From a phage, in the sequence record PZ445523.1: a stretch of DNA of 64,000 nt; one strand, 5' to 3'. The translations under genes and the position numbers were made by a program. Positions 40,053-40,511 of the stretch are shown here, piece by piece. Under the pieces are notes generated by a model. That model saw only the letters and a program-made list of their open reading frames with translations. It had not been told where the DNA came from and did no database searches. The first letter of the stretch is position 1; each line of letters opens with the position of its first letter.

Positions 40053-40511
40053 TTATTTTAAATCGTCTGCCCAATCGAGTTTAAGAGGCTCTTTATATTC
40101 ACGGTCAAGTACAACCGGAATTTGTACATCACCGCTAAATGATAAGGGTCCAACATTATAAGACAATGTTATATGCGGTGTGTAATCATCAAAATCATGT
40201 GTAGCACCTAGTGCCCGCGCATACATGTGTCGACAGCGCAGATATTCAGAATCTAGCACAAGTACAAGAGTCGATCCATCTTGTGTTTTCCATACTTCTA
40301 AATGTCCAGAAGAAGCTACTTCAAAACTTCCACTCGATAGAACATATGGAACATTTACTCTTGAATAACATATGGTCGAATGAATTTTTTCTCTAGGAAC
40401 TGGATTAGGAACACGTAAAGAGCGCTGAAGTTCTTCCAGCGCATCAAGTGTTAATTCTGAAAACTTAGCTGCTACATAAAGACCCGTTGAAAAGTCTTTA
40501 AATTCCATCAT
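40053..40511 (-). CDS. 57B: 2H phosphoesterase; gene 57B / anti-CBASS protein Acb1
   Basis: 152 aa; two H-x-T/S-x motifs (IHSTICYS and PHITLSY); synteny 1-57A-57B as in T4, where 57B is Acb1. Confidence 0.8.

Follow-up and report, generated by a model that had tools for sequence, protein, structure and literature searches.

Gene 57B of a T4-like coliphage very probably encodes an ordinary ortholog of the anti-CBASS enzyme Acb1

Acb1 and other viral proteins acting on immune messengers

The product of gene 57B of phage T4 was identified through activity-guided fractionation as the cGAMP-degrading enzyme Acb1 (Hobbs et al. 2022, PMC9117128). The enzyme adopts a 2H phosphoesterase fold with an HxT/HxT tetrad formed by H44, T46, H113 and T115 (residue numbering in publications, which is followed here, refers to the 152-aa form), the bases of the ligand stack on Y12, W74, F107 and W147, E141 makes an adenine-specific contact, and residues 145-152 constitute a lid (PMC9117128). 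The reaction does not depend on metal and runs in two steps with a cyclic phosphate between them. Adenosine-containing cyclic di- and trinucleotides are cleaved, but not cGG or cA4, and the H44A/H113A mutant is inactive (PMC9117128). Without acb1, T4 is subject to restriction by CBASS (PMC9117128), and HIDEN-SEQ found 57B to be non-essential on K-12, with insertions depleted on a CBASS host. Expression of 57B in T4 is predominantly middle/late (bioRxiv 10.64898/2026.03.30.715471).

The removal of a host immune second messenger is common to Acb1, the Acb2 sponge (vs.4 in T4), Apyc1 and the poxvirus poxins, but the means differ. Acb2 sequesters the messenger instead of cleaving it, Apyc1 is a metal-dependent MBL-fold enzyme that acts on cyclic mononucleotides (PMC9117128), and poxins are described as unrelated in sequence and a case of convergent evolution (PMC13577500). 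Panoptes guard systems sense the loss of cyclic nucleotides, and both natural and selected inactivation of acb1 is reported for Tevenvirinae facing them (PMC13577387; PMC12657218), as exemplified by a nonsense mutation in Bas43 and by the escapers of Bas35 (PMC13577387). Even an intact acb1 ORF therefore does not prove beyond doubt that the enzyme is active.

An acb1 gene in a T-even genome

The window, which is the whole stretch of 64,000 nt that was analysed (PZ445523.1), derives by its sequence from a Tequatrovirus, a T4-like (T-even) coliphage. In a search of phage records, the 3.2 kb and the 22 kb around the locus matched hundreds of Tequatrovirus genomes, with a local (3.2 kb) identity of 97.5-97.8% to RB33, RB32, VEc74 and T2, and of about 96% over 22 kb to a48, JK23 and PP01; none of the matching Tequatrovirus genomes was identical to the surrounding region. 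The acb1 ORF lies on the minus strand (Table 1). The second ATG, at window position 40508, can be taken as its probable conserved start, because codon 1 is ATA in T2 and 151 aa are annotated in the records of both T4 and T2. This ATG overlaps the TGA stop codon of 57A as TGATG, suggesting that translation of acb1 is coupled to that of 57A.

A Pfam-A search with the 57B protein returned PF23474, "Anti-CBASS protein Acb1", with E = 7e-60 and 201.4 bits (cutoff 27), and the match is above the gathering score over the full length of the profile (positions 1-144 of 144). Among PDB sequences the best match was Acb1 in entries 7T26/7T27 (E = 1.5e-62, residues 9-149), and when these residues are aligned directly, the 57B protein is 68% identical to the Acb1 that was crystallised from Erwinia phage FBB1. 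On the strength of this similarity to 7T26, a compact 2H phosphoesterase fold is near-certain for the 57B protein; a single-sequence AlphaFold2 model, with a mean pLDDT of 38.8 and a pTM of 0.33, was too poor to confirm it independently. The FBB1 enzyme, for which an apo structure (7T26) and a structure with 3'3'-cGAMP (7T27) are available, shares the HxT/HxT tetrad and the equivalents of Y12, E141 and W147, but carries F in place of W74 and Y in place of F107 (aromatic for aromatic), as well as a one-residue insertion after position 80.

The closest described relative is T4 Acb1 itself (NP_049750.1; PMC9117128), to which 151 of the 152 residues are identical (99.3%), with P58L as the sole difference; relative to T2 57B, 150 of 152 are identical. 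The 57B protein agrees with T4 Acb1 in length, in all catalytic and ligand-binding residues and in the position of its gene after genes 1 and 57A. Using tblastn, relatives were found in 1,471 of the 50,697 phage records searched, the top matches reaching 99.3% and including the T4 record X03016, in which the ORF is annotated as "put. 57B protein". At the DNA level, acb1 differs from the T4 gene at nine positions, eight of them synonymous and one non-synonymous, and from the T2 gene at 13, of which 11 are synonymous. This prevalence of synonymous differences is a signature of purifying selection on acb1.

At their T4 numbering, the protein has the complete tetrad (H44/T46/H113/T115), the four aromatics on which the bases stack (Y12/W74/F107/W147) and E141, which reads adenine. 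In an alignment reaching down to 39% identity, H44, T46, H113, T115 and Y12 are invariant in 10/10 sequences. Together with 36 IMG/VR relatives the tetrad is invariant in 37/37 aligned sequences, W147 is likewise found in 37/37, and the nine residues named in PMC9117128 are each kept in 36-37 of the 37.

With high confidence, the 152-aa ORF can be regarded as the ortholog of T4 gene 57B (Acb1), a small 2H phosphoesterase, and every feature that is testable in silico places it in the Acb1 family. The initial annotation had already described 57B as a 2H phosphoesterase of the Acb1 type, encoded by a 152-aa ORF with two H-x-T/S motifs in a 1-57A-57B arrangement, and the analysis bears this out: HSTI and HITL can both be read from the sequence, H44 and H113 both align with those of T4 Acb1 within an overwhelming overall similarity, and genes 1 and 57A, recognised by their Pfam matches, lie directly upstream. 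The gene is an ordinary, already known copy of acb1, without new biology beyond that of Hobbs et al. 2022 (PMC9117128).

Table 1. Features of the acb1 locus, with positions in the window
Feature	Position	Strand	Basis
ip7-type internal head protein gene, 102 aa, N-terminal MKTFKEFINE	39342..39650	-	phrog_2667, E = 2.2e-41
ip5-type internal head protein gene, 85 aa, N-terminal MKTFKEF...ITE	39723..39980	-	phrog_3499, E = 1.2e-49
Early-promoter-like element and hairpin (TTTACA-17-TACTAT; GATGAGGTA..TACCTCATC), just 3' of acb1	40011..40039	-	= T4 PE2
acb1 (gene 57B) ORF, ATG-initiated, 152 codons + stop	40053..40511	-	Pfam PF23474, T4 identity
C-terminal residues 145-152 (LDWADDLK), substrate lid including W147	40056..40079	-	identical to T4; lid role per PMC9117128
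Second catalytic motif H113-I114-T115-L116 (CAT ATA ACA TTG)	40164..40175	-	sequence; H113/T115 catalytic in T4 Acb1 (PMC9117128)
Codon 58, CTA (Leu)	40338..40340	-	alignment; CCA (Pro) in T4 and T2 Acb1
First catalytic motif H44-S45-T46-I47 (CAT TCG ACC ATA)	40371..40382	-	sequence; H44/T46 catalytic in T4 Acb1 (PMC9117128)
Gene 57A, tail-fibre assembly chaperone, 76 aa	40508..40738	-	PF17594, E = 2.7e-50
Gene 1, dNMP kinase, first of the 1-57A-57B block	40738..41463	-	PF21448, E = 8.9e-106
Late-promoter consensus TATAAATA within gene 1	41094..41101	-	= T4 PL1
Middle-promoter-like element, AATGCTTCA (MotA-box-like) + 13-nt spacer + TATAAT, 5' of gene 1	41489..41514	-	= T4 PM1

Genomic surroundings of acb1

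As in T4 and T2, the window has the gene order 3-1-57A-57B followed by internal-protein genes. In a sample comprising seven distant Straboviridae in addition to T2 and T4, the order 3-1-57A-57B is kept in Jiaodavirus, Muldoonvirus, Krischvirus, Tulanevirus, Pseudotevenvirus and the T4-like phages of Acinetobacter and Vibrio. Gene 1 has its true start (MKLIFLSG) at 41463, as in T4, and the TTG at 41502 that opens the frame in the ORF listing was rejected as an artefact. Compared with the 80-aa protein of T4 and T2, the gp57A of the window is shorter by four residues (AKDE) close to its acidic C-terminus (...TAESADE[AKDE]E). Since IMG/VR loci L041, L024 and L026 carry this allele too, the 76-aa form can be taken as a natural variant. 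In Citrobacter phage CfP1 (NC_031057, Pseudotevenvirus; L009:1459-2082) the Acb1 homolog has 207 aa, extends at its C-terminus some 55 residues past the usual lid, and is set apart from 57A by an annotated terminator; it may be a fused or extended variant.

The promoter-like elements upstream of acb1 are the same as in T4, and the PM1-like element is identical to the PM1 region of the T4 record X03016 save for one extra T. We infer that the PM1-like and PL1-like elements act as promoters here as well, and their conservation in the window agrees with the middle/late expression of 57B in T4 (bioRxiv 10.64898/2026.03.30.715471). A generic scan for sigma-70-like sites found 17, with no excess over the 16.0 expected from shuffles, and the statements on promoters therefore rest on the correspondence with annotated T4 elements.

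Downstream of acb1 the window differs from T4, which carries ipI at this place, and has an ip5-type gene followed by an ip7-type gene, as in T2, where ip5 and ip7 are annotated at the same positions. Both proteins start with MKTFKEF followed by I-x-E, a start which we take to resemble the capsid-targeting and prohead-protease cleavage signal of T4 internal proteins. Among close relatives the internal-protein locus is variable, with ipI, ip5, ip7 or ip9 annotated depending on the phage. The PE2-like element would drive the ip5-type gene. It belongs to a cassette of early promoter and hairpin that is present in three copies on the minus strand (39262..39345, 39640..39740 and 39970..40070), which sit upstream of trna.4, ip7 and ip5, respectively, and have the form GTTTACA-17-TA(C/T)TAT with a stem of either GATGAGGTA/TACCTCATC or GATAGGGTA/TACCCTATC. 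Furthermore, a direct repeat of 109 nt (39630-39738 and 39960-40068, 88%) reaches the last codons of acb1 (..DDLK*) and of ip5 (..EDLK*), as well as the shared MKTFKEF starts. These repeat and cassette flanks look recombination-prone and could shuffle internal-protein cassettes. Beyond them lie the small conserved ORFs trna.2, trna.3 and trna.4 (38387..39273), which belong to PHROGs of unknown function, and a T4-type cluster of eight tRNA genes (Arg, Met/CAU, Thr, Ser, Pro, Gly, Leu and Gln; 36937..38289, minus strand).

The region had also been proposed to be an anti-defence locus adjacent to the injected internal-protein genes. The adjacency itself stands (PHROG E = 1e-49 and 2e-41), but the neighbours are ip5 and ip7 and not ipI, so that an anti-defence role for them is an extrapolation. 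The argument for an anti-defence island around acb1 rests on T4 ipI, an inhibitor of GmrS/GmrD, and has already been published for T4 (PMC9117128), and no report of an anti-defence activity of ip5 or ip7 was found in the literature. In the distantly related Krischvirus phage Whisky (L005:2685-2888), dmd, which encodes an antitoxin, follows some 0.7 kb downstream of the homolog of acb1, and this fits a clustering of anti-defence genes after 57B.

Proposed function and competing explanations

The most likely function of 57B is to cleave, independently of metal, cyclic di- and trinucleotides that contain adenosine (3'3'-cGAMP as well as cUA and cAAA), by which CBASS would be blunted. The chemistry and the anti-CBASS phenotype are adopted from publications on the T4 protein, which is 99.3% identical, and the FBB1 structure serves as the structural template for the mechanism, while the present analysis contributes orthology, residues, synteny and promoter-like elements. 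According to this model, genes 1, 57A and acb1 are probably transcribed together, under middle and late promoters, and translation of acb1 would be coupled to that of 57A. The cyclic di- and trinucleotide signals of CBASS would bind in a U-shaped pocket with their bases stacked on Y12, W74, F107 and W147, E141 would read the N6 of adenine, and the C-terminal lid (145-152) would close over the ligand. Acid-base catalysis by the H44/T46/H113/T115 tetrad, without metal, would then allow the 2'-OH of adenosine to attack the 3'-5' bond, which would first yield an intermediate with a 2',3'-cyclic phosphate and subsequently a linear product with a 3'-phosphate. With 3'3'-cGAMP, cUA, cAAA and similar signals destroyed, the CBASS effectors would not be activated and the phage would replicate.

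The H-x-T/S motifs that first pointed to this family are by themselves weak evidence. The 152-aa protein contains exactly two H-x-[TS] motifs, 69 residues apart, and is the only one encoded by the 74 window ORFs of at least 100 aa to have such a pair at a spacing of 50-90 residues. Among 20,000 shuffled versions of the protein, however, 16% had at least two H-x-[TS] motifs and 5.4% had two at that spacing. Since about 5% of shuffles carry a comparable pair, the pair was rejected as a sufficient criterion for Acb1, and the significance of the observation comes from homology. The shuffle frequency is also what could be cited for regarding the ORF and its motifs as functionless chance features, a reading to which we assign no probability in view of homologs in well over a thousand phage records, the full-length match to a curated family, eight synonymous changes against a single non-synonymous one relative to T4, and the conserved synteny. 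A different enzymatic role is implied by the name "RNA ligase", an outdated label that many 57B homologs carry in RefSeq records (NC_054931, NC_008515 and others) and in PHROG family phrog_755: 57B would be an RNA ligase of the LigT / 2'-5' RNA ligase type, or an RNA-repair enzyme, with RNA ends or 2',3'-cyclic phosphates as its substrates and not immune signals. Acb1 does have in common with the PF13563 superfamily the two HxT/S motifs, the metal-independent 2',3'-cyclic phosphate chemistry and the general fold (PMC9117128 and general knowledge, the latter also for the 2H fold of LigT), but it forms a Pfam family of its own, possesses a substrate lid and acts on cyclic oligonucleotides. The match of the 57B protein to PF13563 (2_5_RNA_ligase2) is partial (residues 81-123) and weak (E = 0.11), with 13 bits against a cutoff of 27 as compared to 201 bits for the Acb1 profile, and assignment to that family was rejected. 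Moreover, the nearly identical T4 protein was isolated by following its cGAMP-degrading activity and has an anti-CBASS phenotype, whereas the database label is an automated carry-over and not a tested function. That 57B ligates or repairs RNA is thus extremely unlikely.

The one residue that departs from T4 Acb1 raises the question of whether the ortholog is attenuated or retuned by P58L, such that its activity or substrate range is altered and Panoptes guards are triggered less, while anti-CBASS function is kept. A tblastn search of 50,697 phage records (best identity 99.3%) did not turn up the L58 allele, nor did any of the 36 IMG/VR relatives aligned carry it, and single-nucleotide changes in acb1 are known to let phages escape type II Panoptes (PMC13577387). 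However, those escapers were described as predicted to deactivate acb1 (PMC13577387), and residue 58 is absent from the catalytic and ligand-contacting residues listed in PMC9117128. It would be expected in a loop at the surface, outside the pocket. Position 58 is, furthermore, the most variable one in its part of the family alignment (P, V, T, C, I, F or L across the 37 aligned), aliphatic V/I is common there, with V in 18/37, and the active, crystallised FBB1 enzyme has Val at this position. This variability suggests that P58L is probably neutral, and a very small probability is kept for an attenuated or retuned allele.

The reading of 57B as an ordinary Acb1 ortholog has its value mainly in annotation, the widespread label "RNA ligase" for 57B homologs being misleading. 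With an intact gene for an anti-CBASS nuclease, the phage would be expected to resist many CBASS systems, and as a carrier of Acb1 it may in turn be detected by systems that guard cA3, among them type II Panoptes.
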